The notes: generated by a model not told the origin, from the sequence alone. DNA of 64,000 bases from an uncultured bacterium (GCA_949284685.1 CASDWE010000003.1:52870-116869), one strand, 5' to 3'; counted from the stretch's first letter, positions 1,587 to 58,094 are shown. Translations and numbers: made by a program.

Positions 1587-1622
1587 TTAGCACTTCTTAA
1601 AAAGATTACCTATAGGTAATTA
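1587..1622 (+). promoter_or_regulatory. Shared bipartite motif TTAG-N19-CTATAGGTAATTA (putative alternative-sigma promoter/operator), copy 1
   Basis: Same motif and 19-nt spacing recur at 31108-31143 and 58059-58094 (minus strand), each directly before an RBS; contains perfect palindrome ATTACCTATAGGTAAT (1605-1620). Confidence 0.6.
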
Positions 1623-1636
1623 AGGAGTGCTTTTTT

Positions 1637-2827
1637 ATGTATTTTATAAAACAATTAAATGAATCAGATTGCGGATTTGCCACTTTAAAAAATTTATTAG
1701 CAAATATTTATAAAGATAAAAAATATTTATATTTAAAACAAGATTTGAATAAAGAAAAATATTCTTATTATGAATTAATTACAAAAGCCAAAGACTTTGG
1801 ATTATTTTTAAACGGAATTGCATTTAATGAAGCAAAAGATTTAAAACAATTTAAAGATAAAATGTTTTTAGCATGTTTATCATTAAATAATCAAAAGCAT
1901 TTAGTATTAGTAAAAAAACATAAATTATTTTTAACGATATTAGATCCAAACTATGGTAAATATAAAATGAGTTATAAAAAGTTTTATTCAATTTGGGATA
2001 AAACGATTTTATGTATTTTAAATTATAGTGAAAAGATAGTCAAAAAAGATTATTTTTTGGTCAGAAAAAATAATGTGAAATTTAGGACAGTATTTGCAGT
2101 TTTATCGCGTATATTATCTATTATTAGTAGTTTTTTAGCACTTTATTTTATAGATAATTATAATTTTATATATGTTTCGATTATACTTTTTATTTCAGCT
2201 TTTATATTTGAGGCAATATATCGTATTATGATGATATTTTTATTAAAAAAAGTTGATGAAAATTTTAAAAATTTTTATCGAATTAAAAGCGAATATAAAA
2301 AAGATTTTTTTAGCAAATTTCAAAAATATAAAAAAGATAGTGTTTCTATTTGGCCTAATTTTTTCTCTAGCTTTTTATTGTCAAGTTTTATAGTTTTATT
2401 ATTACTTTTAAATAATGTCTTCAGCATATATTTTATATTTTTTACAATGCTAGTTAGTTTTATAAACGTTGCATTTATAAAAAATATTTTTTTAAAGGAA
2501 GCAAAACACATTGCTTTAAAAGAAAAAAATATGTTAGACGTAGATTATTCTTTTTTAGATCTTAAAAGATTATCTAATCTCTCTTATAAAATTGCCGCAA
2601 AATATTTGTTTATACAATCTATTATCACCGGATTAATTGTATTGTTAGTGACAATTAGTCTTTTAATAAATAATGCATTTAGTATTCCGTTTATAGTATT
2701 TTACAGTGTTTTATTAATATTTTTCAAAAAGCAATTTGAAGTTATAATTCAAATAAAAAGCGAACAAATTAAATCAAACACCAATTACTGTTTGATTTTA
2801 AATATGCTTAATTATATTGATGAATAA
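1637..2827 (+). CDS. C39 cysteine peptidase domain + multi-pass membrane domain, no ABC ATPase domain
   Basis: N-terminal QLNESDCG (Q6, C12), H88 (KHLVLV), D103 (ILDP) match the C39 pattern; several hydrophobic helices follow; no Walker A/B. Confidence 0.75.
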   Translation: MYFIKQLNESDCGFATLKNLLANIYKDKKYLYLKQDLNKEKYSYYELITKAKDFGLFLNGIAFNEAKDLKQFKDKMFLACLSLNNQKHLVLVKKHKLFLTILDPNYGKYKMSYKKFYSIWDKTILCILNYSEKIVKKDYFLVRKNNVKFRTVFAVLSRILSIISSFLALYFIDNYNFIYVSIILFISAFIFEAIYRIMMIFLLKKVDENFKNFYRIKSEYKKDFFSKFQKYKKDSVSIWPNFFSSFLLSSFIVLLLLLNNVFSIYFIFFTMLVSFINVAFIKNIFLKEAKHIALKEKNMLDVDYSFLDLKRLSNLSYKIAAKYLFIQSIITGLIVLLVTISLLINNAFSIPFIVFYSVLLIFFKKQFEVIIQIKSEQIKSNTNYCLILNMLNYIDE

Positions 2828-2910
2828 ATTTTATACAACGTAAGAAAAAAATTCCGTTAACATCTTTTTTTCTTAGCAATGAAAAGTTAAGATAAAGCGG
2901 AGGTTAAATT

Positions 2911-4998
2911 ATGAAGAATATAAAACATTTCAAATTTGCTTTTTTTATTCTTTCTTTATTTGGACTTATCATGTCTTCATGTGGTCCTACATCTTCTTCA
3001 TCTAGTAGTTTGATTAATCAAGGTGATTCATCTACACTTAATTCTTCTATAACTACCACATCTTCTCAAAAATACGACATTATTTCTATTAGCGAAGCTT
3101 TAGAAATTGGTCAAAACGCTCCAAGTGATGGAACAAGTGAAAAATATTATGTTTCTGGGACAATTCAAAATATTGACAATACCACTTATGGAAATATGAC
3201 AATCGCCGATGATACTGGCGAACTTTATATTTATGGTTTGTATAATTTTGATGGTTCAATTCGATATGACAGTTTCATCGACAAACCCGTCGAAGGCGAT
3301 GAAGTAATTCTTTATGGTGTAATCGCTAATTATAAAGGCACTATCGAGATGAAAAATGCTTGGTTAATCGAACATAAAGTTCAACAGCATCCTCCTGTTA
3401 CATATGAAAATTATACAATCGAAGAAGCTCGAAAACTCGACAATGGAATTGGTGTCATTTTAAAAGGATATGTCGCATCTATTCGTTTAGGGGGAGGATA
3501 TTCTCCTGCTGGATTTATATTAGTAGATGAAAAGTCGTCGATATATATTTTTACTAGTGATGCTAGTAAAGTAAGTGTTGGAAATAAAGTTACTATCCAA
3601 GGTATCAAGGATTATTGGATTTTGGAAGATGAAGTTTCTTCTGCACAAAAATTTGGCTATAAAGGAGCAAATCAAATCGGCAATGCTTCCGTTATTGAAA
3701 ACGATAATCAAGTCCATAGTTTACCAATGTCTTGGGTTGAAGAAACAACTGTTAAAAATCTACTTAATATTCCAGTAGAAAATGATATAACTAGTTTGGT
3801 TTACAAAGTAAATGCACAAATTATTCGTCAACAGGGGACTGGATTTATTAATTATTATATAAATGATTTTGATGGAACTGGTTCGTATATTTACACTAAT
3901 AATAATGGAAATGAACTTGATGATGAATTGTTAGAATATGATGGGAAACTATGTACACTATATATTACGGCATTGAATGCAAAATGTGATACTAGTGGAA
4001 CGCTTTATCGTTTCATGCTTGTCGACATAATAAGTGATTCCTATACGATGCCTGAAGAACAATTTCCTGAATTTGCCTTAGATTATTATGTGATTAATCA
4101 ATTTAACGAAAAATATCAAAGCGATCCTGCAATTAGTCTGATACAAACTGTTAATAATGACATTTTAAACTTTTCAGGAGTAAACATTTCTTATTCTTCA
4201 TCTAATAATAATATTTTTACGATAACAGAAGAAAATAACGAATTGAAATTCCACTGGACTGGAATTGAAGGTGAGTCAGTTATTACTATGAACGCTACTT
4301 ACAATAACTATCAAGCAACACGCACTTTAACTATCAAAGGTGAAGATATCGGTGATATAGAAACATCGACCATTGAAGAAGTTATTGAAGGTAATTATGG
4401 TGAAACATATACTGTTCGTGGTATAGCAGCAGGGAGTTATCCTCACGCCTTAAATAAAGGTTTTATGCTTGTTGATGAGACAGGTGTTTTAGCTATTATT
4501 ACAACAGATGAAATCATGAAAGATATCGCACAAGGTAATGAAGTTATTTTTAAAGGAGAAAAATATAATTATGGCGAAGCAGGAAATACAAAAGGAACAA
4601 TTTGTTTAAGAAATGCTGTACTAATCCAAAATTTATATGGAGAACATGAATATAGTAAAAACGCTATTAAAAAGGCTAGTGTGAGCGAACTATATAATTT
4701 AGATGTCACAATTGATCATTCATTTGAATTATATGAAGTTAATGCTATTGTCGAATTTGAACGTGCACAGCACTATACAAATGTAAAAATCAAAAGTGAA
4801 GATGGTTCTTCATCTGTTCGTTTATACACAAATAATGGCGATTCAAATTATGGTTGGGTTGAAAAGTTAGCTAACAAAGTAATCAAACTTCATTTAATTC
4901 CAATCAATTGGAATAGCAAAAATTATTATACTTACGTTCTTATTATGGCAAGTGATGGTGTAACAACTCTTTATAATGAAACTACCTTTGGTCGTTAA
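2911..4998 (+). CDS. Surface lipoprotein with repeated OB-fold-like modules
   Basis: Signal peptide ending LIMSSC, Ser/Thr linker, repeated modules of type TIEEA..V.V.G.V...GF.LVDE.G.I.I. Confidence 0.6.
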   Translation: MKNIKHFKFAFFILSLFGLIMSSCGPTSSSSSSLINQGDSSTLNSSITTTSSQKYDIISISEALEIGQNAPSDGTSEKYYVSGTIQNIDNTTYGNMTIADDTGELYIYGLYNFDGSIRYDSFIDKPVEGDEVILYGVIANYKGTIEMKNAWLIEHKVQQHPPVTYENYTIEEARKLDNGIGVILKGYVASIRLGGGYSPAGFILVDEKSSIYIFTSDASKVSVGNKVTIQGIKDYWILEDEVSSAQKFGYKGANQIGNASVIENDNQVHSLPMSWVEETTVKNLLNIPVENDITSLVYKVNAQIIRQQGTGFINYYINDFDGTGSYIYTNNNGNELDDELLEYDGKLCTLYITALNAKCDTSGTLYRFMLVDIISDSYTMPEEQFPEFALDYYVINQFNEKYQSDPAISLIQTVNNDILNFSGVNISYSSSNNNIFTITEENNELKFHWTGIEGESVITMNATYNNYQATRTLTIKGEDIGDIETSTIEEVIEGNYGETYTVRGIAAGSYPHALNKGFMLVDETGVLAIITTDEIMKDIAQGNEVIFKGEKYNYGEAGNTKGTICLRNAVLIQNLYGEHEYSKNAIKKASVSELYNLDVTIDHSFELYEVNAIVEFERAQHYTNVKIKSEDGSSSVRLYTNNGDSNYGWVEKLANKVIKLHLIPINWNSKNYYTYVLIMASDGVTTLYNETTFGR

Positions 4999-5083
4999 TA
5001 TTTAAAAATATTATAAAGTTGTTTTGATTATTTGGTCTAGACTTTGAAATTAATATTTTGTGTGTTAAAATAAATTTCCAAGG

Positions 5084-5575
5084 ATGGAATTAGATTTTAG
5101 TTCATTTAAAAAGCAGTACAATCGGTTCAAAAGAAAATATCTTGAAATAATGGATATTACTTTTAAAAAATTAAAGATTAAAGCCGATATATATCTTAGT
5201 GTCGCTATTGTTGATAATGACTATATTCATGCGATTAATCGTGAATATCGAAAAATCGACAAAGAGACCGATGTAATTTCGTTTGCCTTTTTAGATGATA
5301 AACATGATTTTTCTACACTTTATAAAAGAAAAGAAAAAATCATTCTTGGTGAAATTTACATATCATATGATAAAGCCAAACAACAAGCTATTGAATATGG
5401 TCATTGTTTTACTGACGAAATGATATTTTTATTTATTCATGGCTTGTTACATCTTTTAGGATTTGATCATATGACAAAAAAAGAAGAAGAAATTATGTTT
5501 CCTCTTCAAAAAGAAATCTTAAATTTTTATAAGGAGAAAAACAATGGACAACAAAGAACTAGTCGAAAGAGCTAA
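5084..5575 (+). CDS. ybeY: rRNA maturation endoribonuclease YbeY
   Basis: TDVISF and HGLLHLLGFDH motifs. Confidence 0.96.
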   Translation: MELDFSSFKKQYNRFKRKYLEIMDITFKKLKIKADIYLSVAIVDNDYIHAINREYRKIDKETDVISFAFLDDKHDFSTLYKRKEKIILGEIYISYDKAKQQAIEYGHCFTDEMIFLFIHGLLHLLGFDHMTKKEEEIMFPLQKEILNFYKEKNNGQQRTSRKS

Positions 5576-5945
5576 ATTAGCCCGCAAGTTATCTTACTCA
5601 CCATATTCGAAATTTGCAGTAGGTGCAGCATTATTGTGTAATGATGGCAGCGTTTATTTAGGAGCAAATATTGAAAATTCGTCTTACCCACTTTCAATGT
5701 GTGCTGAAAGAAATGCTATTTACAACGCTATGTTAAATGGAAAAGGGAAAAATGATTTTGTGGCTTTAGCAATTGTTGCGAATACTCCTGATATTTGTGC
5801 ACCATGCGGTGCTTGTCGCCAAGTAATTAGTGAATTAATGCCAAAAGATGCAAAAGTTATTATGGCAAATTTAAATGATGCTATAAAAGCAGTAACAGTG
5901 GATGAATTATTACCTTTTGCCTTTTCTAGTGAGGATTTAAATTAA
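5544..5945 (+). CDS. cdd: Cytidine deaminase
   Basis: YSPYSKF, CAERNA, PCGACRQ. Confidence 0.97.
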   Translation: MDNKELVERAKLARKLSYSPYSKFAVGAALLCNDGSVYLGANIENSSYPLSMCAERNAIYNAMLNGKGKNDFVALAIVANTPDICAPCGACRQVISELMPKDAKVIMANLNDAIKAVTVDELLPFAFSSEDLN

Positions 5946-5947
5946 TA

Positions 5948-6841
5948 ATGAAATCGGGTTTTGTAGCAATCATAGGAAGACCAAATGTAGGCAAGTCTAC
6001 TTTGTTAAATGCAATTTTGCAAACAAAAATTTCTATTGTAACAAATAAAAGTCAAACAACTAGAAACAATATCAAAGGAATTTATACTGAAAAAGATAGC
6101 CAAATTGTTTTTGTCGATACACCAGGCATACATAAATCACATTTTAAACTAGGTGATGAAATGAACAATATGGCACTAAATAGTTTTAAAGATGTTGATG
6201 CTATTTTATATATTGTAGATTCTAGCAAAGATTTTGATGAATTAGATGAACAGTTATTAACATCAAATAAAATAAATAGTCAAATTCCACTTTTTTTAAT
6301 ATTTAATAAAATTGATTTAACTAACATAATTAAAATTAATAACTTAAAAAAGAAGTATTTGTCTTATTTCCCTAACGCAAAAGTAATTGAAACTGTTGCT
6401 ATTAAAAATTTTAATGTTGATGATTTGATTAAAAACATAATAGAAATATTGCCAGAAGGTCCTTTTTATTATCCTGAAGATCAATTATCTGATCGCGATC
6501 TTCGTTTTCAAGCCAAAGAAATTATAAGAGAACAAGCCTTGATTTTATTAGATAAAGAAGTTCCGCATTCTCTAGCAGTCGAAATAGAAAATTTTAAAGA
6601 ATTAGAAACCAAAATCGATATTGATGCATTAATCATTGTTGAAAAAGATAGCCAAAAAGGAATTGTAATTGGAAAAAATGGAACAATGATTAAAAATATA
6701 GGAATGCGCTCTAGAAAAGAACTAGAAAAAATATTACAAACACATGTAATTTTAAATTTATATGTAAAAGTAATTAGGGATTGGCGGAATAAAAACACTA
6801 TCTTAAAGCAATTTGGATACACCAAAAATTCAAATTATTAA
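5948..6841 (+). CDS. era: GTPase Era
   Basis: GRPNVGKSTL, DTPG, NKID, KH domain VIGKNG. Confidence 0.98.
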   Translation: MKSGFVAIIGRPNVGKSTLLNAILQTKISIVTNKSQTTRNNIKGIYTEKDSQIVFVDTPGIHKSHFKLGDEMNNMALNSFKDVDAILYIVDSSKDFDELDEQLLTSNKINSQIPLFLIFNKIDLTNIIKINNLKKKYLSYFPNAKVIETVAIKNFNVDDLIKNIIEILPEGPFYYPEDQLSDRDLRFQAKEIIREQALILLDKEVPHSLAVEIENFKELETKIDIDALIIVEKDSQKGIVIGKNGTMIKNIGMRSRKELEKILQTHVILNLYVKVIRDWRNKNTILKQFGYTKNSNY

Positions 6842-6844
6842 AAT

Positions 6845-7558
6845 ATGAAATTAGTAATTATTAATATTTCTCAATATAAAGATAATGACGCTATTTTGAC
6901 TTGTTTTAATGCGGAAAATAGTTACACACTTATTGCACGAGGATTATTTTCAAATAAAAGCAAAATCTCTTTTTTAAATAACCCTTTAACTTACGCTGAT
7001 ATTGATATTTCAGTGTCAAAAAGAAATAACTATCAATCGGTAAAAAGTGCAAATTTGATTTTTTCTCCAATGCAAATAATGAACGATTTTAATGACATTA
7101 TTTATGTAATGATTCTGGCTGATGTTATAAAAAGATGTTTATCAGATGAAGAAAGATGTCAAATTTTTAGTGAGTTGTTATATACACTCAGCGCTATAAA
7201 AAATAATTCGAATAAAGAAACATATATATTATCTCTTTTAGCTAAAATATTAAAAATTGCTGGATTTGCGATTTCTATTGACGAATGTTGTATATGCCAT
7301 AATAAACAAAACATAGTCTCTTTTTCGTTATCTGATGGTGGTTTTATATGCAAAAACTGTTTTGACAAAGGCATATATACAAAATATAGCAAAGAACAAC
7401 TTATAATTTTTTATAATGTTTTTAAAAACTTTTTATCAGCTAAAAATAATTTTACAATCGGTGATAAAGATTTTTTTATGATTTTAGATGTTATGATTAA
7501 ATTTATCGAGGAATCATTTTCAATTAAAATTAAAAATTATCAACTTCTATTCAAGTAA
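6845..7558 (+). CDS. recO: DNA repair protein RecO
   Basis: Follows era; N-terminal OB region and CCIC..GGFICKNC zinc finger. Confidence 0.85.
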   Translation: MKLVIINISQYKDNDAILTCFNAENSYTLIARGLFSNKSKISFLNNPLTYADIDISVSKRNNYQSVKSANLIFSPMQIMNDFNDIIYVMILADVIKRCLSDEERCQIFSELLYTLSAIKNNSNKETYILSLLAKILKIAGFAISIDECCICHNKQNIVSFSLSDGGFICKNCFDKGIYTKYSKEQLIIFYNVFKNFLSAKNNFTIGDKDFFMILDVMIKFIEESFSIKIKNYQLLFK

Positions 7559-7587
7559 AACATAAAAATAATAACACTTATAATGGG

Positions 7588-7616
7588 TTGACAAAATGTA
7601 TATAATTAAATATAAT
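7588..7616 (+). promoter_or_regulatory. Consensus sigma-A promoter of glyS-dnaG-rpoD
   Basis: TTGACA-17 nt-TATAAT exact. Confidence 0.9.
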
Positions 7617-7655
7617 GTTTGCTTGTCGCGCGCCTAGGCGTGTCGGAGGTAGATT

Positions 7656-9032
7656 ATGGCTAACAAATTTAGTTTTGATAAAATTACGACCCACCTTATC
7701 ACAAGTGGGTTTTTCTTTCCTGGTTCAGAAATTTATGGTGGACTTTCAAATACTTGGGATTATGGTCCACTTGGTGTAGAAATTAAAAATAATATTTCTA
7801 AAATGTGGTGGAAAAAATTTGTCCAAGAATCTTCTACGAATGTTGGAATCGATGCGGCAATATTAATGAATCCACGCGTTTGGGAAGCTACAGGACACGT
7901 CAATAGATTTAACGATCCTTTAATTGATTGTAAAAATTGTAAATCTAGACATCGTGCTGATGAATTAATCGCAAATCAATTTAAAGATGTCGATGTAAAT
8001 AAAATGAGCAATGAAGAAATGGATGATTTTATTTCTTCTCATGATGTCAAGTGTCCTATTTGCGGGAAACACGATTTTACAAAGATACGCCAATTCAATA
8101 TGATGTTTAAAACTCATATCGGAGTAACGCAAGATTCTTCCAGTGTGGTTTATTTAAGACCAGAAACCGCACAAGGAATGTTTGTTGATTTTAAAAGCGT
8201 TTTACGTTCTGCTAGAAGAAAGTTGCCAATAGGCATATGTAATATTGGTAAGTCGTTTAGAAATGAAATTACTCCAGGACAATTCACTTTTAGAACAAGA
8301 GAATTTTCTCAAATGGAAATGGAATTTTTCTGCGAACCAGGAACAGATTTAAAATGGTTTGATTATTGGAAAAAATATTGCTTTAATTTTGTTTTATCCT
8401 TGGGAATAAACGCTGATAATCTTCGTTTCCGCGATCACGAACAAGACGAACTAGCTTTTTATAGCAAGGCTACTTCTGATATAGAATACGAATTTCCTTT
8501 CGGATGGGGTGAAATTTGGGGCATTGCTGATCGAACTGACTATGATTTGAAAAGGCACATGGAATATTCAAAACAATCATTAGAATACTTAGATCCATTG
8601 ACAAACGAAAAATATATTCCATATTGTATTGAACCTAGTGTTGGTTTAGATCGTTTGATTTTAATGACACTTTGTGATGCTTACGATGAAGAAGTTTTAG
8701 AAAATGGTGAAACACGTGTTGTCATGCACTTACATCCAAGTATTGCAACTTATAAGATTGCTGTTTTGCCTTTGGTAAAAAAACTAGAAGAAAAAGCTCA
8801 TGAAATTGAAGCGATCTTAAGAACATATTTTTCTATAGTTTATGATGAAACTGGAAGTATTGGAAAAAGATATCGCCGTCAAGACGCTATTGGAACGCCA
8901 TTTTGCTTAACTGTTGATTTTGATACATTAGAGGACAATTGTGTTACTATACGTGACAGAGATACCATGCAACAAATTCGTTTGCCAATTAAAGATTTAG
9001 TTAATTATTTTTCAGTTAAAGTGTTTTTTTAG
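7656..9032 (+). CDS. glyS: Glycine--tRNA ligase (alpha2, single-subunit type)
   Basis: [29 protein letters not shown], anticodon domain [11 protein letters not shown]. Confidence 0.96.
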
Positions 9033-9041
9033 GAGTAAATA

Positions 9042-30432: not shown

Positions 30433-30526
30433 AAATATTATATTATTTAGGCTAGAACCACATTAATTATGTATTAATAATAATTTAAATTACATACATT
30501 TAAAAGATTTCCACATTTTAATTTTA

Positions 30527-30553
30527 ACTAAATAACTACTAAATAACTACTAA
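30527..30553 (+). repeat. Triple ACTAA array with 11-bp period (site B)
   Basis: ACTAAataact ACTAAataact ACTAA. Confidence 0.8.
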
Positions 30554-31096
30554 TTACAACGCTCCATTTATGATTAAAAAATAGTAATTGCGTAAAATTA
30601 AATCGACTTTTTCTTTAGATAAATAAAGACGATCGTTTTCATGCTGCGGACCATTTATTACTTGTTTTGTATAAAGTCTTAATTTATCAATCGTTCTGAT
30701 TTGATTTATGACCGCTAAAGTTTGCTGACCATCTTTTAATCCTTTGACTTCTCCGATATTTATGTCACTTCTTGGATGCGGTCCAAAACGATTTGTTTTT
30801 AAAGGACATACTATTACTAATGGATTATGTATACCAGAATCTGCTAATACAACTCCGTAGTGACGATTTGAAAATTCTGCATTAACATTTATTCCCCAAT
30901 CAAATTCATAAATTTCACCTTTCTTTAAATTATACTTAACACTATGATTTAACGAATAAATAGAATATTCTAATTGCCTTTTTATCCATTCTACTTGTCC
31001 TAGAAGCTTTTTAAATGCCTCGTTTTTTTCTTGTGTTAAATTTGTTGTTTGAAAATTCATTTCTTTTTTAAAATTTAATTCATTTTGTTCAATCAT
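30554..31096 (-). CDS. PemK/MazF-like family protein, no adjacent antitoxin
   Basis: KGEIYEFDWGINVNAEFSNRHYGVVL, VIVCPL, NQIRTIDKLRL. Confidence 0.78.
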   Translation of the reverse strand: MIEQNELNFKKEMNFQTTNLTQEKNEAFKKLLGQVEWIKRQLEYSIYSLNHSVKYNLKKGEIYEFDWGINVNAEFSNRHYGVVLADSGIHNPLVIVCPLKTNRFGPHPRSDINIGEVKGLKDGQQTLAVINQIRTIDKLRLYTKQVINGPQHENDRLYLSKEKVDLILRNYYFLIINGAL

Positions 31097-31107
31097 AAAA
31101 AACCTCC

Positions 31108-31143
31108 TAATTACTAATAGGAGGAAATTTTTAATATTGCTAA
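31108..31143 (-). promoter_or_regulatory. Shared motif TTAG-N19-CTATTAGTAATTA, copy 2
   Basis: Minus strand reads aaaaaaaTTAGcaatattaaaaatttcctcCTATTAGTAATTAggagg before the PemK-like ATG. Confidence 0.6.
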
Positions 31144-31148
31144 TTTTT

Positions 31149-31937
31149 TTAAAAAGAATATTTATTTTTTAAATATCGTTTAAGAAAATACATGATTATG
31201 TCAACCAAACCTATAATAATAATCGCATGTAAAGAATATGCCATGATTTGATCAACAAAAGCAAAATTATATGCTTGTCTAATTAATATTCCTAATCCAT
31301 GTATCGAATTGTTTCCAATTAAAACTTCCGCCATAAGGCTAACTTTCATACCTAATCCTAATGTTTGAAATGATGCTAAAAGTAAATATGGTATCAAATT
31401 TGGTATTTTTATATTTAAAATAGCTTTAATATTATGTAAACCAGCATCTACTTTTATTGAATTGACTATATTTTTATCTAAACTTTCATATCCATTGATT
31501 ACAGCTTCATAAATTATTGGAAACATAACCAAAAAAACGATTAAAAATAAAGACATAAATGGTTTAAATAAAACAATTAAAATTAAAATTACCGCCGCGG
31601 TTGGAACGGTTTTTAAAATTAAAACTAATGGTTTTAAAATTAAACGTATAATATGAAATTCACCCGCTAATATACCAAATATAAATCCAATAGCAAAACT
31701 TAATAAAAAAGATAGAATGAGTCTAAGAAAAGTCCATCCTATCGCTATATATAATTCACTTGTTGCAAAATAATTAAAATATAAATTTAAAACTTCAGTT
31801 GGCGTTGGAAATAAAGAATTATTAATAGTTATTGCTAAAATATACCAAATCAGAAAAATAGCAACTATGCCAATTACGATATATAATACATTTAAAACTT
31901 TTTTTAATAATTCTTTTTCCCTAGCGTTTAATTTCAT
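31149..31937 (-). CDS. ABC transporter permease (SsuC/TauC-like)
   Basis: LFPTP, multiple TM helices, AEV..G..GLG..I. Confidence 0.85.
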   Translation of the reverse strand: MKLNAREKELLKKVLNVLYIVIGIVAIFLIWYILAITINNSLFPTPTEVLNLYFNYFATSELYIAIGWTFLRLILSFLLSFAIGFIFGILAGEFHIIRLILKPLVLILKTVPTAAVILILIVLFKPFMSLFLIVFLVMFPIIYEAVINGYESLDKNIVNSIKVDAGLHNIKAILNIKIPNLIPYLLLASFQTLGLGMKVSLMAEVLIGNNSIHGLGILIRQAYNFAFVDQIMAYSLHAIIIIGLVDIIMYFLKRYLKNKYSF

Positions 31938-50429: not shown

Positions 50430-50436
50430 AAATTTT

Positions 50437-50459: not shown

Positions 50460-50467
50460 ATATTATT

Positions 50468-53131
50468 TTAGTCATTAATTCCAATAAATATAGCTTCCTC
50501 AGGTTCGCTAGATTTAACTTTTGGAGTTTTTTTATGTTTTCGTTTGATTTTAAGATTTGGCAATTTGATATTCAATTTACGCATAATTTTATAAATGAAC
50601 ATATAAACAGGACCAAAACAAGTTAAAATCAAAGCCAAGCCCACTATTAATCCAACAAAGGCAAACAAATAATAGTTGGAAGTTGCTAAAGGTCCAAAGC
50701 CAAAATTATTTAAACATAAATAGGCAACAATAATTCCGGCAACCGCAATAGTGCTCACACTTAAAGAAACGGCTTTATTCATTATTTCGACACGTTTTTC
50801 AACGCTGTTATCCTTGCTTCTAACCAATTCATCTTTGACCATTTCTTTATCTTTGTTAGCAAATAATGTCATTAACAAATAACTAACAGCAATAATAAGT
50901 GGTAAAGCAATAAATAAATCTAAACCGACGCTGATGCGAGTTAAGACAAATACTCCAACGCTAATAAATCCAATTACTCCGCTAAATAAGACAGTTGCTA
51001 ATCCTTTTGATAATCCATAGCGAAGTGTCAAATACAATGACATAAATCCAATTGCCACAGCACTCGCCACTACAATCCAAATATAGTCTGGTTGTTGAGC
51101 GTTAACATGTCTTGTCATTTTAACAGATGCCATAGCATTAGCGTCGACGTTTGCGTTTTCAATATAATCGACATATAAATTGTTCAACGTATCTTGATAA
51201 CCATCATCTAAATTGAGTTTTGCCATTTGTTCACCATCAATTGGACGATTTAAATCAACGACGATATATGTATAATTTGTTGTTACACCTTCGATAACTT
51301 CTTCACGAGAATATATTGTCATATATTCATTAAGATTAGTGCCTTCTTCAAACAAATCTTCATATGTTGTTTCTTCATTTTCCTCATAAACTAATTGAGT
51401 GTTTTTCAATAAATTTTCCACATAAGAAAGATTGACAGATGAATTATTTGTTGTTGTTTCGAAATATAAATATGTATTTCCTTGTGAATAAGTTCCTGGG
51501 TTAAAAATTGTTCCGTTATCTAAAACACCAAAGGTGATAGAGCCAGCAATAGATGCGGCAAACAAAATTAATCCAACAATCATAAATGGTTTTTTATGTT
51601 TGGTAAAATTAGTATTTTGGAATGTTCCATAAAAAGATTGTTTTTCTTCATTTAAAATATTTGGAACATTTTCATTTTTAACACCAATGACACTATATTT
51701 ATTTGTAAATTTTGTAGTGTTAGTTAATAACCACATCAATGCTTTTAATCCTAATGTATTTAAAAGCAATGAAGCAATTCCACCAAAAACACATACAGCA
51801 GCAAATGAAATCATCATTTCACCACCTAGCCAATAAAATATCGCGCCAATAATAACTAATAAAACATTTAAATCAACTATTGGAAGCAAGGCTCTTTTTG
51901 CACCTTCCGCGTTAGCTTTTTTAAGTGAACGTCCACGATAACATTCTTCTTTTACTTTATTGATATAAACAACACCGCACACAACACTGACAATAGCCAC
52001 CAATGCTAATCCAACAACCATTGCGGTATTAAATTCAACTGTAAATAAAATTGAAAATAAAAGTGCAAGGTAAGTTGAACCTATACCTAAAGTAGCAATA
52101 GCAAGTGCAGCCCAACGATAAAATGCTGCTAATAACAAAGATAAAATTAAAATTGCAAATAATGTAGCAATTAATGTTCTAGACATAGCAACAGTTTCTC
52201 TCATGCCATAAGAAATAATATTTTCAAAATAAGCAGGAACTGTTTTTTCAAAAATAAATGTGACATCATATGGCAATTCATCACTATTTAAGAGATTGAC
52301 ATAATAATTTGCAATTTGTGTACCATTACTTACATCATTAGTTGTAATAGATCCATCGCCATCTGTATCGATATTCACGCTACTAGCGATTGCCGTATGA
52401 GTATCATCACTCCAAATTCTTGAAATATCAAATTGCATGAGCAATTTATCGGCTTTATCTTCATCATAATCATCACTTGAAGATATTAATTCAGAAATAG
52501 TATCAGTTTCTTCATTAAAGTTGTAAGCTAAATAAACATAAGTAGCAGTATCTTCAGTAGTTTCCCCTTCTTCTTCGGTTGAAGTATTATTGTTTGCTTC
52601 TTCTTGCAATCTTTCCGCTTCTTCTATAACAGCTTGAAATTCTTCACTTTCACTATTAATTGGAATGACAACGGTTGGATAATGATTAACAAAAGTCACA
52701 TAACTTTCGCGTGAAGTATCCATAAATTCATCACCAATGGCGACTGTATTTGAACTAGTACCAAGAGCAAAAGCACCATTAAATGACAAATATGTTTCGA
52801 TTTGTTCATAATATGCGGTTTGTTCTTCGCTTAAAACAACTTCTACAATATCATTACCTTGGGTATAAATATCATATCTTGTTTCGCCATATGTATTTAA
52901 TCTTTGTTCCATAATACTAGCAATTTCGCTAGAAGCGTCTTCAGGAAGGACGCTATCATCATCGGTGCTAGAAAGTTGGAAAGTTAAAGATTTGCCATCA
53001 GCGTATTCAATATTTGTATGACTTTTTAAAAAAGCGGTATTAAATGTGACGCCAACTGCGGTTAATCCAAGAACAGATAAGGCTAAATAAGCAATAAATC
53101 TTCTCATAAATCTCAATTCCTTTTTAATCAA
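50468..53131 (-). CDS. secDF: Protein translocase SecDF fusion (divergent)
   Basis: Two halves each with TM, large extracellular domain and 5 TMs; ruvB-secDF-recJ synteny; start may be MRRF at 53107. Confidence 0.8.
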   Translation of the reverse strand: MIKKELRFMRRFIAYLALSVLGLTAVGVTFNTAFLKSHTNIEYADGKSLTFQLSSTDDDSVLPEDASSEIASIMEQRLNTYGETRYDIYTQGNDIVEVVLSEEQTAYYEQIETYLSFNGAFALGTSSNTVAIGDEFMDTSRESYVTFVNHYPTVVIPINSESEEFQAVIEEAERLQEEANNNTSTEEEGETTEDTATYVYLAYNFNEETDTISELISSSDDYDEDKADKLLMQFDISRIWSDDTHTAIASSVNIDTDGDGSITTNDVSNGTQIANYYVNLLNSDELPYDVTFIFEKTVPAYFENIISYGMRETVAMSRTLIATLFAILILSLLLAAFYRWAALAIATLGIGSTYLALLFSILFTVEFNTAMVVGLALVAIVSVVCGVVYINKVKEECYRGRSLKKANAEGAKRALLPIVDLNVLLVIIGAIFYWLGGEMMISFAAVCVFGGIASLLLNTLGLKALMWLLTNTTKFTNKYSVIGVKNENVPNILNEEKQSFYGTFQNTNFTKHKKPFMIVGLILFAASIAGSITFGVLDNGTIFNPGTYSQGNTYLYFETTTNNSSVNLSYVENLLKNTQLVYEENEETTYEDLFEEGTNLNEYMTIYSREEVIEGVTTNYTYIVVDLNRPIDGEQMAKLNLDDGYQDTLNNLYVDYIENANVDANAMASVKMTRHVNAQQPDYIWIVVASAVAIGFMSLYLTLRYGLSKGLATVLFSGVIGFISVGVFVLTRISVGLDLFIALPLIIAVSYLLMTLFANKDKEMVKDELVRSKDNSVEKRVEIMNKAVSLSVSTIAVAGIIVAYLCLNNFGFGPLATSNYYLFAFVGLIVGLALILTCFGPVYMFIYKIMRKLNIKLPNLKIKRKHKKTPKVKSSEPEEAIFIGIND

Positions 53132-53211
53132 TAAAATCCATATAAAATAATCGCATAAAATATGCTTTTATAATTTACAACAAAAGTAAGTATTTTTCAA
53201 CAATTTATTTA

Positions 53212-54219
53212 TTAAAATAAATTACCTTGATAATCGATTTTTAAATGTTTGTATGCTTTATTTGTTACAACTCGCCCTTTACTAGTTCTATTAATAAAGC
53301 CGATTTGTATTAAATATGGTTCATAAACATCTTCTAAGTTGGTTGTTTCTTCTCCAATTGCACTTGCGATGGCTTCAACACCAACAGGACCACCTTTATA
53401 CCTATCAATAATTGTTTGTAAATATCTAATATCGACATCATCTAATCCAAGCGGATCAACTTTTAAAGCATTAAGAGCTTTCAATGCATGTTCCAAATTT
53501 ATATCATCATAACCTTCATAATTTGCAAAATCACGAACACGTCTAAATAAACGATTAGCAATTCTAGGTGTTCCACGACTTCTTTTAGCTATTTCATAAC
53601 TAGCGTCATCTTCAATTTTACAATTATAAACTTTCGCTGTTCTTTTGACGATTTGATTTATTTCATCGACAGTATAAAAATTTATTTTTTCGCATATACC
53701 AAATCTAGCTCTTAATGGAGATGATAAATCTCCAGCCCGTGTTGTTGCACCAATTAAAGTAAAAGGAGCAATATCAATTGTTAATGTTTTCGCGGAAGTT
53801 TCACGCGACACCACTAAAGAAATTGTATAATCTTCCATTGCTTGATATAAAATTTCTTCCACGACACGAGGTAAACGATGTATTTCATCAATAAATAATA
53901 CTTCGCCAGGTTCTAAATCTGTTAATATCGTTGCTAAATCGCCAGCTTTTTCAATTGAAGGTCCACTGATGACACGAATTTTTGCATGCATTTCATTTGC
54001 AATGACGTGAGCTAAGGTCGTTTTACCAAGACCAGGAGGACCATAAAACAAACAATGATCAAGACATTCACTTCGATGCAAGGCAGCGTAAATAAAAACA
54101 CGAAGATTGCTTTTTAAATGTGTTTGTCCGACGTACTCATCAAGAGTTTGAGGGCGCAAAGAAATTTCTTCTGTCTCTTCTTCTTTATTTAAATGATTAT
54201 CCATTAATCTTTTTTTCAT
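53212..54219 (-). CDS. ruvB: Holliday junction helicase RuvB
   Basis: LRPQTL.EYVGQ, GPPGLGKTTLA, FIDEIHR, RGTPRIANR. Confidence 0.98.
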   Translation of the reverse strand: MKKRLMDNHLNKEEETEEISLRPQTLDEYVGQTHLKSNLRVFIYAALHRSECLDHCLFYGPPGLGKTTLAHVIANEMHAKIRVISGPSIEKAGDLATILTDLEPGEVLFIDEIHRLPRVVEEILYQAMEDYTISLVVSRETSAKTLTIDIAPFTLIGATTRAGDLSSPLRARFGICEKINFYTVDEINQIVKRTAKVYNCKIEDDASYEIAKRSRGTPRIANRLFRRVRDFANYEGYDDINLEHALKALNALKVDPLGLDDVDIRYLQTIIDRYKGGPVGVEAIASAIGEETTNLEDVYEPYLIQIGFINRTSKGRVVTNKAYKHLKIDYQGNLF

Positions 54220-54773
54220 TATTTTTTCCTCAAGTTTTTAAGTGCTAAGGCTAATATTTCTTCATTAGTAGCGTTTTCAATATTAATTTGTGCTAATACA
54301 TTTTCGATTTGAGTATTTTTAAATCCTAGTTGTTTTAATGCTTGTTTAACATCTTCGTATTGTTCGGGATTTCCCTTTTCGCCAGTTAATTGACCTTTTA
54401 AATCTAAAATGATTTGACTCGCGGCTTTTTGCCCAATGCCTGGTAGTCTTTTTAAATACGCAACATTGTTGCTAGCAATAGCTTTCATTAACATATCTGG
54501 TGTCGTCATAGACAAAGCATTGATTGCCAATTTTGGACCAATTCCCTTGACATTAATCAAAGACATAAAAGCTTGTTTTTCTAAAAGATTATTAAATCCA
54601 ATAAGATATTGTTCATCTTCTCTAACAACTAAATAAGTGTAAACAAAAGATTCTTCGTTAAGAATAAATTCATCAGGATGAGAAACAATAATTTGATATC
54701 CGACCCCATTAACATCGATTACAATAAATTGTTTGTCTTTATAAATAATTTTTCCTTTTAAAGAATAATACAT
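54219..54773 (-). CDS. ruvA: Holliday junction binding protein RuvA
   Basis: VNGVGY, VRED, GIGPKLA, PGIGQKAA. Confidence 0.97.
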   Translation of the reverse strand: MYYSLKGKIIYKDKQFIVIDVNGVGYQIIVSHPDEFILNEESFVYTYLVVREDEQYLIGFNNLLEKQAFMSLINVKGIGPKLAINALSMTTPDMLMKAIASNNVAYLKRLPGIGQKAASQIILDLKGQLTGEKGNPEQYEDVKQALKQLGFKNTQIENVLAQINIENATNEEILALALKNLRKK

Positions 54774-54799
54774 TTTGTTTACCTCTTATAATTATTATT

Positions 54800-56068
54800 T
54801 TAGTTTATATATTCGAATTCAAAATCACATAATATAACTGTATCGCCATTTTTAGCTCCTAATTGTTCTAATCTGTCATCGACACCAATATGTCGTAAAT
54901 GGGAAATTAATTTTAAAATTCCTTCATCGGTTGATAGATTAATCATCGCATAATATTTTTCGATTTTTTCCCCATAAATTCTAAATGTATTCGAATTTAC
55001 TTTTTCAATATTAAACGATTCTTCTTCTTGTAATGAATAAACTTTAATTGTTTCTTTTTCTTGCAAATCTTCTAGTGTCAAATTTGGACAATCTTGCAAT
55101 TTCAAATAACATCCTTTTTTAAATTCATCGATATTTTCATTTGTTAAACAACTAATTGGATAAATTTTAGCTTTGACTTTGCTTTTAAATTCTTTTAATA
55201 AATCAAGCGCTCCATCTTCATCCATCTTACTAGCAACAATTATATAAGGACGATTGATTAGATTGTATCCATATTCTTTTAACTCTTCTCGTAATTCTAT
55301 AAATTGTTGATAAGGATCCATGCTTCCATCCATAGAAATTGCATAACAAATAAGGCGACATCTTTGCACGTGTCTTAAAAATGTTAATCCTAGTCCTTTT
55401 CCTAAATGTGCCCCTTTAATTAAGCCAGGCAAATCCGCTAAAACAAAATAATCGTTATTATTTAGATAAACCACGCCTAAATTAGGTTCGATTGTAGTAA
55501 AAGGATAATCAGCTATCTCAGGTTTTGCATTACTTATTAAAGATAATAATGTGGATTTTCCAACGCTTGGAAAGCCAACTAACCCGACATCCGCTAGTAA
55601 TTTTAATTCCAAAGTTAATTTTTTAATTTGTCCAGGCTCACCATTTTCAGCAATTTTTGGTGCACGATTAATGCTAGATTTAAAACAAGCATTTCCTCGT
55701 CCACCTCTTCCACCCTTTGCGACCATTACCATCTTATTATTTTCATCTAAGTCAGCAAAAAAAGTATGTTCTGGTTCAATATAAATGACAGTGCCAACTG
55801 GAACATCGACAATAACATCATCCGCACATCGGCCATATTTATTTTTAGAGCCACCTTTTTCACCATCATTTGCGATAATTACTTTTGAGTGACGAAAATT
55901 AAAAAGAGTATTTAAATTTTTATTAGCACGAAAATAAATTGATCCACCTCGACCACCATTTCCTCCGCTTGGACCACCGAATGGAAGATATTTTTCACGC
56001 AGGAAAGCAATCATTCCGTCTCCGCCTTTTCCTGAACGAACCTCAATTTTAACTTGATCAATAAACAT
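54800..56068 (-). CDS. obgE: GTPase Obg
   Basis: Gly-rich Obg fold, GFPSVGKST, YPFTT, DLPG. Confidence 0.98.
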   Translation of the reverse strand: MFIDQVKIEVRSGKGGDGMIAFLREKYLPFGGPSGGNGGRGGSIYFRANKNLNTLFNFRHSKVIIANDGEKGGSKNKYGRCADDVIVDVPVGTVIYIEPEHTFFADLDENNKMVMVAKGGRGGRGNACFKSSINRAPKIAENGEPGQIKKLTLELKLLADVGLVGFPSVGKSTLLSLISNAKPEIADYPFTTIEPNLGVVYLNNNDYFVLADLPGLIKGAHLGKGLGLTFLRHVQRCRLICYAISMDGSMDPYQQFIELREELKEYGYNLINRPYIIVASKMDEDGALDLLKEFKSKVKAKIYPISCLTNENIDEFKKGCYLKLQDCPNLTLEDLQEKETIKVYSLQEEESFNIEKVNSNTFRIYGEKIEKYYAMINLSTDEGILKLISHLRHIGVDDRLEQLGAKNGDTVILCDFEFEYIN

Positions 56069-56092
56069 TTTATTCTCCGAAATATATTTTAT

Positions 56093-56124
56093 AAAAAGAC
56101 CACATTGTTTTCAATGTGGCTTTT
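56093..56124 (-). terminator. Terminator after rpmA
   Basis: CCACATTG-TTTT-CAATGTGG stem with A/T tails. Confidence 0.7.
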
Positions 56125-56130
56125 ATTATT

Positions 56131-56418
56131 TTATTTAGCTTCAATTACATTAACGCGAGTTCTATTTTTTCCCCAACGTTCATATTTTACAATACCAGAC
56201 TTAGTAGCAAATATTGTATCATCTCCACCACGCTTTGTATTAAGTCCTGGATAAATTTTTGTTCCGCGTTGACGATAAATAATATTTCCCGCCAAAGCAA
56301 ATTGACCATCAGCTTTTTTAGCACCAAGTCTTTTTGATTCACTATCACGTCCGTTTTTAGTGGAACCGACACCCTTTTTACTAGCAAAGAGTTGTATATC
56401 TAATCTAAAGTTCATCAT
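56131..56418 (-). CDS. rpmA: 50S ribosomal protein L27 with Prp-cleaved N-terminal extension
   Basis: LDIQLF|[15 protein letters not shown]. Confidence 0.98.
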
Positions 56419-56424
56419 CTTTTT

Positions 56425-56739
56425 TTATCCTTTCTTTATAAATTCAATTTTGATATTTTTTGGATAACTTTCAGCAATTGTTTTTAAGGAAGTAATTATC
56501 GTTTCGATGACAATCTCGTCATGATACGTTAATTTTCCTTTTAATTTCAATAATGCATATCCATTTTCAAGAATCATTTCAAATTCTTGATTTTCTTTGA
56601 TGGAATTAAATCCTCCAGTTAATACGCTTGATACGCCTGCACAAATCAAATCTTGACCATGTACATCGCTTCCAGCATGACCCCTAACTATTAATGATTC
56701 AAATTCTTCGTTTTCTCCATCAATTTTTACAATAATCAT
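56425..56739 (-). CDS. prp: Ribosomal-processing cysteine protease Prp
   Basis: GHA....GQDLICAGVS; between rplU and rpmA. Confidence 0.93.
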   Translation of the reverse strand: MIIVKIDGENEEFESLIVRGHAGSDVHGQDLICAGVSSVLTGGFNSIKENQEFEMILENGYALLKLKGKLTYHDEIVIETIITSLKTIAESYPKNIKIEFIKKG

Positions 56740-56741
56740 AT

Positions 56742-57050
56742 TTAAGCATTAATACTTTCAATGACTAAGCATGTATATGGTTGACGATGACCTAAAGTTT
56801 TGCGTTCATTGTGCTTGGCTTTGTATTTGTAAATACGAATTTTTTTACCTAAGCCGTGCTTTTCCACTTTAGCGACAACGCTGGCGCCTTTGACATATGG
56901 TTTACCGACTTTATTAGATTTATCGCTTACCAATAACACTTTATCAAAGGTATAAGACGCTCCTGATTCAACATCAAGTTTTTCAACATAAATTTTTGAA
57001 CCAACTTCAACGCGTACTTGTTTACCACCAGTTTCGATAATTGCGTACAT
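56742..57050 (-). CDS. rplU: 50S ribosomal protein L21
   Basis: [18 protein letters not shown]. Confidence 0.98.
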
Positions 57051-57075
57051 AAATGTCCTCCTTTTTTTAAACTAA

Positions 57076-57152
57076 TGACTCGCTTTCAAGGTATAATGCA
57101 TAGCATTAATTTATAACCTTTTTAAGGCGGTTGTAGCCAAATATAGGCGACA
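57076..57152 (-). ncRNA. L21 leader-like cis-regulatory RNA
   Basis: 5' UTR of rplU containing GCTACAACCGC...GCGAGTC elements typical of the L21 leader; boundaries approximate. Confidence 0.65.
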
Positions 57153-57160
57153 ACGAGAGT

Positions 57161-57189
57161 AATATAACATCAGTTATATATTTTGTCAA
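57161..57189 (-). promoter_or_regulatory. Sigma-A promoter of rplU-prp-rpmA
   Basis: TTGACA-17 nt-TATATT on the minus strand. Confidence 0.8.
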
Positions 57190-57190
57190 A

Positions 57191-57883
57191 TTATATTTGA
57201 TTTTCTAAAAATGAAAAATAACCATTTGGATAAATTACGATATGATCTACTAGTAAAATTTTCTCCTTTTTTGCTTTGTTTTTCAATTCGTAAGTAAATA
57301 AAATATCTTCATCGCTTGGATAAGGATAATTTTCGATATGATTATGCAATAAAATAAATTTGCTTTTACGTTCTTTTTTAATGAATTTTATTATTTCTTG
57401 GCTAGAAACATAAACATATTTTTCACTGCCTTGATAAATTAATGTTTCATTAACAATTTTGTTTTGATAGTTAAGTAAAATAATGAAGACTAACTCTTGA
57501 TTTTTATTATTTAATAGGTTTTGATATTTATTTGTTAAATAGGTTAAATTATCCTTATAAAGAAAAAAGGAATTTTTCACATTTATTCTTTTATAAAATT
57601 CAAAAATAGTTTTTAGTAAAAGTGCTTTATTTTTATTAATTCCTTTAATGCTAATAAGTCTTTCATAATCCATACTTATTACATTGATCAACCCACCATT
57701 TTGATAATATATTTCATGAGCAAGTTGCAATACATTTTTATTTTTATAACCGCTGTTTAAAATAATAGCAAATAATTCAATATCGCTCAAAGTTTCAATT
57801 CCATACCGCAAAGCTTTTTCTTTAGGACGCTCAATTATCGGCAAATCCTTTATTTTATAATTTATTCCCAAGTAAATTTCCAC
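57191..57883 (-). CDS. radC: RadC family JAB-domain protein
   Basis: KDLP..ERPKEK, LSDIELFAIIL, HNH......PSDED, LVDHIVI; GTG/TTG start overlapping the upstream peptide gene. Confidence 0.88.
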   Translation of the reverse strand: MEIYLGINYKIKDLPIIERPKEKALRYGIETLSDIELFAIILNSGYKNKNVLQLAHEIYYQNGGLINVISMDYERLISIKGINKNKALLLKTIFEFYKRINVKNSFFLYKDNLTYLTNKYQNLLNNKNQELVFIILLNYQNKIVNETLIYQGSEKYVYVSSQEIIKFIKKERKSKFILLHNHIENYPYPSDEDILFTYELKNKAKKEKILLVDHIVIYPNGYFSFLENQI

Positions 57884-58047
57884 CCACCAGGAATTGTAAC
57901 ATTTGCTTCGTTTGACAAAAATAATCGATAAATAATAACGGCGACAACTGCAACTGCAATAACTGCCATGACTGTTGTTAGTGTAATAGCTTCACCAACA
58001 TAATGTTGTTTTAATTCTTCATCACTTAAAATTCTTAATTTATTCAT
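57862..58047 (-). CDS. 61-aa peptide with double-glycine-like leader and hydrophobic core
   Basis: Strong RBS AGGAGG; MNKLRILSDEELKQHYVG|EAITLTTVMAVIAVAVVAVIIYRLF.. Confidence 0.75.
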   Translation of the reverse strand: MNKLRILSDEELKQHYVGEAITLTTVMAVIAVAVVAVIIYRLFLSNEANVTIPGGWKFTWE

Positions 58048-58058
58048 TTTTTTCCTCC

Positions 58059-58094
58059 TAATTACTTATAGAGAAAAAACAAATGAAAAACTAA
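58059..58094 (-). promoter_or_regulatory. Shared motif TTAG-N19-CTATAAGTAATTA, copy 3
   Basis: Minus strand reads ttttTTAGtttttcatttgttttttctCTATAAGTAATTAggagg before the peptide ATG. Confidence 0.6.

Follow-up and report, generated by a model that had tools for sequence, protein, structure and literature searches.

A conserved upstream box as the probable promoter of a late-competence regulon in genome-reduced, uncultured gut Bacilli

Boxes in the window and in the genome

The window, that is the whole stretch of 64,000 nucleotides (nt) that was analysed (G000:C3:52870-116869), belongs to the genome of an uncultured bacterium, G000, whose assembly comprises 1,112,366 bases in 3 contigs with 29% G+C and is 96.5% complete; the sequencing runs which contain DNA of this organism are gut metagenomes, including chicken gut. 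The subject of this work is a bipartite element, referred to below as the box, in which TTAG is separated by exactly 19 nt from the 13-mer CTATWRGTAATTA. The window contains three boxes. Box 1 (1587-1622, + strand; TTAG 1587-1590, CTATAGGTAATTA 1610-1622) lies between the housekeeping gene dnaJ (446..1564, +) and the gene of a C39 peptidase-like protein, box 2 (31108-31143, - strand; TTAG 31143-31140, CTATTAGTAATTA 31120-31108) between an ATP-binding cassette (ABC) permease gene (31149..31937, -) and a PemK-like gene, and box 3 (58059-58094, - strand; TTAG 58094-58091, CTATAAGTAATTA 58071-58059) between the valyl-tRNA synthetase gene (58099..60759, -) and an operon of a small peptide gene and radC. 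The end of the box is 7-14 nt from the start codon in all three. An earlier note on this DNA had placed the three sites at these positions and strands, and this is borne out: the full pattern matches three times in the window and never in 100 shuffles that preserve the dinucleotides (mean 0.00, maximum 0). The note had also seen a sequence common to two of the sites; this is AAAAAAATTAGCA, found at boxes 1 and 2 and in one further copy in the genome. The 13-mer alone, with up to one mismatch, is found 3 times in the window against 1.12 expected, and 8 of the 100 shuffles reach 3, which is not significant; the weight therefore rests on the fixed spacing of TTAG and on the genome-wide picture.

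The gene calls of the note also stand. Box 1 precedes a C39 peptidase-membrane protein of 396 amino acids (aa) (1637..2827, +), whose C39 domain (PF03412, Peptidase_C39; 48.4 bits, E 1.1e-12) covers residues 1-127 and is fused to a multi-pass membrane region. Box 2 precedes a PemK/MazF-like protein of 180 aa (30554..31096, -), which matches PF02452 (PemK_toxin; 33.8 bits, E 4.2e-8) at residues 58-144, behind a 57-residue N-terminal extension. Box 3 precedes the gene of a 61-aa peptide (57862..58047, -) and radC (57191..57883, -; start GTG 57883 or TTG 57871), which matches PF04002 and PF20582 (RadC, E 9e-22) and, from residue 21 of its open reading frame (ORF), NF000642 (146.9 bits). As the peptide ORF runs into the start of radC, the two genes make up a single operon. 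Translation table 4 (TGA = Trp), suggested by the Mycoplasma-like composition, was rejected in favour of table 11: TGA acts as a stop, and 79 of the 85 in-frame TGAs in 400 table-4 ORFs of at least 350 aa lie within the first or last tenth of the ORF. Table-4 ORF calls in this genome thus carry false N- and C-terminal extensions.

Across the genome, CTATWRGTAATTA occurs six times, and TTAG lies exactly 19 nt upstream of every copy (6/6). The three strict sites outside the window precede recA (directly after cinA), the gene of a thioredoxin-like lipoprotein, and a 105-aa ORF heading an ATPase operon. A matrix built from the six strict sites was used to scan the genome with a threshold score of 14. 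Exactly 12 matches exceed it; six weaker copies are added and nothing else. These precede dprA, comFA-comFC, comEA-comEC, two MacB-like 'bacteriocin export' ABC genes, rpsF-ssb-rpsR, and the gene of a 250-aa protein without a family match. Each of the 12 matches is shortly followed by a gene in the same orientation. A matrix made from all 12 sites gives them scores of 22.6-27.6, a circular result, and the next-best match a score of 16.7.

Concerning the identity of the competence genes, RecA is recognised by PF00154 (E 5e-133), DprA by TIGR00732 (202 bits, cut-off 191), and the helix-hairpin-helix domain of ComEA by TIGR00426 (58.5 bits, cut-off 53.1). ComEC/Rec2 reaches 180 bits with TIGR00361 (cut-off 190) and exceeds the cut-off of TIGR00360. 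The ComF family match has an E-value of 4.5e-19, and the ComFA-like helicase is recognised by generic helicase models only. The thioredoxin-like lipoprotein has 146 aa, and its gene is followed by pcrA/uvrD and ligA. BdbDC is needed for competence in B. subtilis, and the box-led lipoprotein recalls it. The operon headed by the 105-aa gene (G000:C2:637959-642544) contains, in this order, the genes of the 105-aa MG284/MPN403 family protein, a 339-aa protein, a 133-aa protein, a TadA/VirB11-like ATPase and two membrane proteins, then a gene of 113 aa and a gene for a hydrophobic, pilin-like protein of 60 aa. Its ATPase is the only one of the T2SSE type (the type-IV-filament ATPases) in the genome; family matches in the operon are limited to this ATPase and the first gene, and, wherever the loci extend far enough, members of the family have the first four genes in the same order. 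A Peptidase_A24 prepilin peptidase (PF01478) was not found at E<=1 in the 96.5%-complete genome, which falls short of proving its absence.

Based on the 12 sites, the box marks essentially the entire canonical late-competence gene set together with the three genes of the earlier note. That note had proposed a genome scan in which comEA/EC, dprA, ssb and recA would speak for competence; these genes and the pilus ATPase operon are found behind boxes. With 12 sites in the whole genome the box is not frequent before random genes. The claim that no full copy precedes housekeeping genes is nearly right, the exception being the weaker copy 120 nt upstream of the start codon of rpsF-ssb-rpsR, the least certain of the sites; the housekeeping genes pcrA-ligA and topA lie 3' of box-led genes.

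Between the PemK-like gene and either neighbour there is no ORF of at least 50 aa. The toxin domain of a type II toxin-antitoxin pair is present here and an adjacent small antitoxin gene is not. Growth arrest during competence may be the part of this MazF-like protein in the regulon, as one possibility. Right after its stop codon (30515-30553, -) there is a short tandem repeat, TAGTAGTTATT x2.

Conservation, start site and hairpins

Among 31 related genomes (G000 counted) the pattern is found in four, all of the same genus, and a reversed control gave 0 matches. G001 is nearly identical to G000, and the informative species of the genus are G002-G006. In G003-G006, 23 upstream regions of orthologues were read (comEA, comFA, recA, PemK, peptide-radC, C39 and dprA): 17 have an exact TTAG at the species' own spacing and the other six differ from it by one or two bases of the tetramer. 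CTWWWRRTA is kept in these regions while the spacer sequences are unrelated. In G003 the spacer is N20 at all sites. In G002, TTTTTGKWCATTT replaces TTAG at five of five genes (comEA, comFA, recA, peptide-radC and C39), the variants being TTTTTGGTCATTT or TTTTTGTACATTT (TTGGTCA / TTGTACA). One element changed at every member of a gene set in a single species is what would be expected from an altered DNA-reading protein.

The earlier note had named loss of the motif upstream of orthologues as a reason to doubt it; all three of its genes keep the box. The site of box 1 is kept in 5/5 other genomes of the genus, each in the species' own version; that of box 2 in G003 (ATAG-N20) and G004 (TTAG-N19); and that of box 3 in G003-G006, with the variant in G002. 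The C39 and peptide-radC genes are present in 7/7 genomes of the genus and the PemK gene in 4/7. These data also bear on the idea that the repeats are chance copies, or scars of mobile elements or insertion sites with no regulatory role. Such scars would suit genes that look 'wedged' behind housekeeping genes. The idea is nevertheless extremely improbable: the chance expectation is zero copies, 12/12 sites point towards a gene, the gene set is functionally coherent, and species share the sites at orthologous positions despite diverged flanks, with no extended homology in the alignments.

The position of the box relative to the start codon suggests how it may be read. Neither comFA nor the lipoprotein gene has a Shine-Dalgarno (SD) sequence, and their ATG starts exactly at the last base of the box (comFA in G000, G001, G005 and G006; the lipoprotein gene in G000 and G005) or, for comFA of G003 and G004, one base earlier. 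At the other box genes the last A of the box is immediately followed by GGAGG. In the simplest reading the last A of the 13-mer would be the transcription start. With the start at this A, TAWWAG would serve as the -10 element, the 5-nt stretch from it to the start falling within GTAATT, and TTAGNN, separated from it by 18 nt, as the -35 element. A consensus scan called no sigma-70-type promoter at the three boxes of the window. In G000, recA (G000:C2:56765-56777) has an SD-led ATG and, four codons before it, an in-frame ATG that coincides exactly with the end of the box; leaderless and SD-led starts both seem possible.

Most boxes are embedded in a hairpin. In the usual layout an anti-SD 5' arm (e.g. 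CCTCCTA) lies just 5' of, or overlaps, the CTA of the box; the remainder of the box forms the loop, the SD forms the 3' arm, and a run of T and the ATG often come next. Hairpin 1 (1590..1636, +) is formed by GCACTTCTTAA ... TTAAGGAGTGC, its 3' arm holding the ribosome-binding site (RBS) AAGGAG, followed by TTTTTT, with a free energy (dG) of -10.8 kcal/mol. Its SD is fully paired, its inner loop contains the -10 part of the box, there is a nested stem, and G006 and G005 show a compensatory change (GCACCT / AGGTGC). Hairpin 2 (31097..31124, -) reads CCTCCTA-TTAGTAAT-TAGGAGG followed by TTTTTT; its 3' arm is the RBS, its SD is fully paired (dG -10.9), and it was called terminator-like, with 0.0 such calls expected in shuffles. 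Hairpin 3 (58049..58079, -; TTTTTTCTC... / ...GGAGGAAAAAA) is weaker (dG -7.9) and has no T-run; it pairs the RBS, and the SD is again fully paired. Boxes 1 and 3 gave no intrinsic terminator call.

The SD is fully paired at dG<=-6 at six of the eight SD-led box genes (dG -7.9 to -16.2). Under the same criterion 22 of 428 SD-led genes qualify genome-wide, four of which are box genes. At the operon of the 105-aa gene 80% of the SD is paired, and recA is without such a hairpin. The hairpin upstream of dprA is found in 24 of the 28 family genomes with a recognisable SD (30 loci read), with stems as different as CCTCC/GGAGG, CACC/GGTG, CCCCC/GGGGG and CTCTTTC/GAAAGAG. That of comEA is present in all 7 genomes of the genus, and both the comEA and the C39 hairpins show compensatory changes within it.

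These hairpins raise the possibility that the element works mainly as RNA, namely as a terminating hairpin which sequesters the RBS until a protein, a small RNA or temperature opens it, with the shared loop sequence as recognition site. The strong enrichment of SD-pairing hairpins at box genes, their persistence with changing stems (dprA, comEA) and the terminator-like call at box 2 are all in line with it. Against it, TTAG lies outside the hairpin at a fixed distance of 19 nt (20 in G003) with an unrelated spacer between, the motif persists at boxes that have no hairpin (recA, comFA, the lipoprotein gene), the leaderless genes have their ATG at a fixed position of the box, and G002 alters the upstream element only, at all five genes examined. 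An RNA role beside a promoter belongs to the best explanation; as the sole explanation it fails, and we consider it quite unlikely. As a part of the promoter reading, RNA reading through from the upstream housekeeping gene would fold and be terminated or translationally masked, whereas RNA begun at the box, having no 5' arm, would be translatable.

Candidate readers of the box

With a probability of roughly 0.75, we read the motif as a 'competence box', the promoter of a late-competence regulon in a genome-reduced, uncultured member of the gut Bacilli, most likely read by an alternative sigma factor for which the best candidate is a protein of the SigH/ComX family. The earlier note had proposed a -35/-10-type promoter for an alternative sigma factor and a competence-like regulon; the genome scan, the conservation and a SigH-family gene support this proposal at the sequence level. 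The regulon would switch on DNA uptake (comEA/EC, comFA/FC and the Tad-like pilus), DNA processing (dprA, recA, ssb and radC) and a peptide module (the C39 protease-membrane protein, the leader peptide and two ABC exporters), and in some species the MazF-like protein would join it.

The sigma factors of the genome are encoded by rpoD, two ordinary genes of the extracytoplasmic function (ECF) type and a sub-threshold, SigH-like third, the gene which answers to the SigH/ComX-like factor that the note had proposed to look for. It lies outside the window (G000:C2:533028-533627) and encodes 199 aa. The protein aligns weakly over its full length to the SigH model TIGR02859, far below the cut-off (E 1.4e-4; 3.6e-7 for the G005 orthologue). 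Using a profile of 22 family members, the best match among solved structures is 3mzy, 'sigma-H factor' (E 1.3e-18, against 6.9e-12 for sigma-E). The same profile places the gene in 60/61 family genomes and in 49/49 of those of high quality; the single miss is a genome that is 66% complete. In G000 the gene lies directly downstream of a SpoU/RlmB methylase gene, and a methylase-like C-terminus is found at the same place in 26/26 relatives read. The gene of an energy-coupling factor (ECF) transporter ATPase follows, and there is no yacP or rpmG-secE-nusG neighbour. The gene order in B. subtilis is yacO-yacP-sigH, which the methylase neighbourhood recalls. There is no recognisable SD before the ATG of the SigH-like gene (upstream ...AAAATAAAAGAATCGCT); weak translation of this gene could help to silence the regulon, and weak translation has been reported for sigH of S. 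aureus.

The SigH-like protein is fast-evolving (37% identity within the genus), as are, likewise, the SigH-like factors of lactobacilli described in PMC3364868. According to accounts in PMC3364868, PMC4754846 and PMC6560143, late com genes are direct targets of activation by SigH-family factors in S. aureus, L. sakei, Listeria and streptococci. Since the family switches on late com genes elsewhere, the SigH-like protein is taken as the likeliest reader of the box, on the strength of its family role, distribution and gene neighbourhood.

Several points weigh against this interpretation, some of them against the sigma factor and others against the promoter. The SigH-like protein stays below every curated cut-off (25.8 against 42.9 bits for TIGR02937), and a Pfam search with it gave nothing at E 0.01. 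The residues at what we presume to be its region 4.2 positions show no obvious tracking of the -35 change of G002. Compared by eye, the box has no convincing alignment with the SigH consensus or with the pneumococcal ComX motif. The -10 element ends in G, where promoters of the sigma-70 type have T, and the -35 element consists of merely four fixed bases. TTAG at the six weaker sites is not independent evidence, because the matrix itself scores TTAG, and the box of rpsF-ssb, 120 nt from the start codon, might be non-functional. Constraint on the RNA may account for some of the conservation of the 13-mer, which lies partly in the stem and next to the SD. Finally, the sequencing runs listed with the DNA of the organism include none of RNA.

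A box read in a different way, by an activator which binds it together with the housekeeping sigma factor, is unlikely; the 105-aa MG284/MPN403 protein would perhaps be that activator or the recogniser of the -35 element. Its gene carries a strict box, which would fit autoregulation, and heads the same operon in 28/28 other loci compared, with at least one downstream operon gene wherever the locus reaches. The protein belongs clearly to its family (NF045770, 58.6 bits, cut-off 37.3), and its AlphaFold model is confident (predicted local distance difference test, pLDDT, 91.8). The nearest structures to this model are sigma region-4 domains: 3hug (probability 0.92, root mean square deviation 2.0 A, 59 columns), 2h27 and 1rp3. 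The likeness is seen in the C-terminal part, and the Foldseek E-values of about 2 are not significant; a profile of the protein against solved structures finds nothing below E 0.49. The family model finds no copy in G004 and G005 (88% and 93% complete), both of which have the box, and a single-sequence search finds the protein in 33/61 family genomes only. The -10-like part also has no final T, which the housekeeping sigma factor needs, and the box is asymmetric, unlike typical dimer sites. As the sigma factor itself, the 105-aa protein was rejected: it is too short, it is missing from the searches of G004 and G005, and its structural likeness is not significant. It may be a co-regulator. A full-text search on MPN403/MG284 returned no relevant paper.

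That one of the two ordinary ECF-type sigma factors (C1:74071-74586 or C2:742654-743175) reads the box is very unlikely, and both were rejected on their distribution. Both have clear region 2 and region 4 matches, and the second is followed by a 352-aa membrane protein in a sigma/anti-sigma-like arrangement. Each of them is found in 43/61 family genomes, however, against 59/61 for dprA; neither is found in G005, which has the box; G002 is without a close copy of the second and G003 without a close copy of the first. The spacing of the box is also unlike that of typical ECF promoters. In the second locus (G000:C2:742654-744200) the membrane protein has a single pass and an acidic C-terminal half, and the two genes are probably a sigma/anti-sigma pair unrelated to the box.

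Peptide module, related systems and meaning for the lineage

The competence-box reading brings a putative peptide-processing module into the regulon. In the C39 protein, residues Q6, C12, H88 and D103, which we take to be the catalytic positions, are invariant in 6/6 sequences of the genus. The protein has no ABC_tran match and thus shows no ABC ATPase in its 396 aa, and the 673-position model NF045998 aligns only to its residues 5-234. The 61-aa peptide, which is conserved in the genus, begins with a leader whose double-glycine-type pattern ends in V17-G18, followed by a transmembrane helix and TIPGGWKFTWE. Its family comprises 1119 clusters at E<=0.001, none with a specific name; the source labels read 'hypothetical protein', from metagenome-assembled genomes of Bacilli and Erysipelotrichaceae. 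In 26 members the leader pattern is (L/M)(T/S/N)xxE(L/M)xx(H/I)x(V/G)G, followed by E-A-I-T-L-T, a transmembrane helix and IPGGWKFTW. Gly is found at -1 in 26/26 of them and at -2 in 1/26, most having Val there, and the hydrophobic or acidic positions -12, -8 and -7 are largely kept. The consensus of double-glycine leaders is LSxxELxxIxGG. The mature peptide is 60-70% identical across many genera.

When residues 1-140 of the C39 protein are modelled in complex with the peptide, the score is 0.64, and the best of three controls reaches 0.00; the model passes a mark reached by 58/80 solved complexes and by 2/110 mismatched pairs. At least 84% of the contacts are shared between runs, and the partner has a pLDDT of at least 54. 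In the model, peptide residues 3-20 lie against C39 residues 10-13, 40-48, 59-65 and 86-89, over C12 and H88. Since leader-C39 complexes have already been solved, the pass shows likeness and not binding. The proposal of the earlier note that the peptidase and a candidate substrate are linked across 56 kb thus gains support from the model and from a wider family with a leader of the double-glycine type, in which position -2 is mostly Val. As the peptide is highly conserved and tied to radC, and an A24 peptidase was not found, a structural role in DNA uptake may be worth testing, speculative as it is. In its boldest form, the C39 protein and the leader peptide would be core components of a DNA-uptake machine and not a bacteriocin system: a cut after V-G would free a hydrophobic 43-residue subunit like a Flp pilin, C39 would replace the A24 peptidase that the genome seems to be without, and hairpin-buried promoters would silence the regulon. 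We hold this version to be unlikely.

The C39 domain, with invariant Gln, Cys, His and Asp, resembles that of the peptidase-containing ABC transporters (ComA, LagD), as do the substrate-like leader pattern and the modelled docking of the leader; those transporters have a fused ATPase domain, and the C39 protein described here is without one. Bacteriocins are also fast-evolving, in contrast to this strongly conserved and radC-linked peptide.

Concerning the regulon as a whole, a close parallel is the late-competence regulon of streptococcal ComX (sigma-X) with its 'cin-box'. Both have a sigma factor of the SigH family, dispersed late genes and a conserved box just upstream of the start site, a predicted one here, and both include comEA/EC, comFA/FC, a pilus operon, dprA, recA, ssb, radC and bacteriocin-like functions. 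The streptococcal cibAB genes encode competence-induced double-glycine peptides. Members of the ComX regulon given in PMC6560143 include radC, dprA, cinA-recA, comG and cbpD. The motif published there for ComX is TTTTTNHNNNYTHTTMCGAATADWNWRRD followed by the start site, as against TTAG-N19-CTAWWAGTAATTA here. The pilus also differs, being Tad-like here and ComG-like in the ComX regulon, and recA has its own box 3' of cinA, whereas the box of the ComX regulon lies before cinA.

A second parallel is SigH of S. aureus, L. sakei and L. monocytogenes, where a cryptic, very divergent factor activates com genes in non-sporulating Firmicutes, as set out in PMC3364868 and PMC4754846. The gene neighbourhood is conserved in the SigH systems; here the sigma gene adjoins an rlmB-like methylase gene. 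The consensus given for SigH in PMC4754846, RMAGGRWWW-N11-12-RRMGAAW, has no resemblance to the box.

In its long spacer and its position relative to the start codon, the box comes closest to the promoters of sigma-20. This factor of Mycoplasma genitalium (MG428) is described in PMC4446450 with the promoter TTGTCA-N18/19-ATTWAT, ending 7-26 nt from the ATG. Like the system described here, it comprises a small, barely recognisable sigma factor, an unusually long promoter spacer near the ATG, and a regulon with recA and an ABC transporter, MG_390 (PMC4446450). The -35 element of G002 (TTGGTCA / TTGTACA) resembles the TTGTCA / TTGGCR of sigma-20 in M. genitalium and M. pneumoniae, whereas the hexamers of G000 differ. 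The regulon of sigma-20 covers recA, ruvA and ruvB; in G000 recA has a box, and ruvB and ruvA (53212-54773, -), which lie in the window, have none among the 12 sites. MG_390 contains a C39 domain. To our knowledge, M. genitalium has no com uptake genes.

The pilus has a counterpart in Micrococcus luteus, whose transformation by a Tad/Flp pilus likewise involves an operon with a Tad-type ATPase, and not comG, alongside comEA/comEC (PMC4322843). In contrast to M. luteus, profiles recognise only the ATPase here, and the membrane and pilin-like proteins are without a family match.

The earlier note had called the regulon undescribed. This holds for the lineage and the motif; regulons of this kind, in which SigH or ComX controls the late competence genes, are well known. 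The novelty lies in the motif and the lineage, in the placing of promoters within hairpins and in the additional members of the regulon. Among the 12 papers listed, of 591, in a literature search on competence in RF39-like lineages, which may have missed the right family name, none contained RF39. The pair of promoter and candidate sigma factor would be a new one for the very divergent SigH/ComX family, and its evolution is visible within one genus (N19, N20 and the changed -35). A hairpin-embedded promoter that masks the RBS and terminates would be a compact way to insulate silent genes directly behind housekeeping genes. The regulon would also give a competence setting to two families without a known function, the leader peptide of about 60 aa (1119 clusters) and MG284/MPN403. 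The host family consists of gut Bacilli with genomes of about 1 Mb which are known from metagenomes only. A complete and tightly wired competence regulon predicts that they would be naturally transformable, which bears on how reduced genomes acquire DNA and nucleotides; if members of the family were cultured, expression of the SigH-like factor would be a possible route to their genetics.

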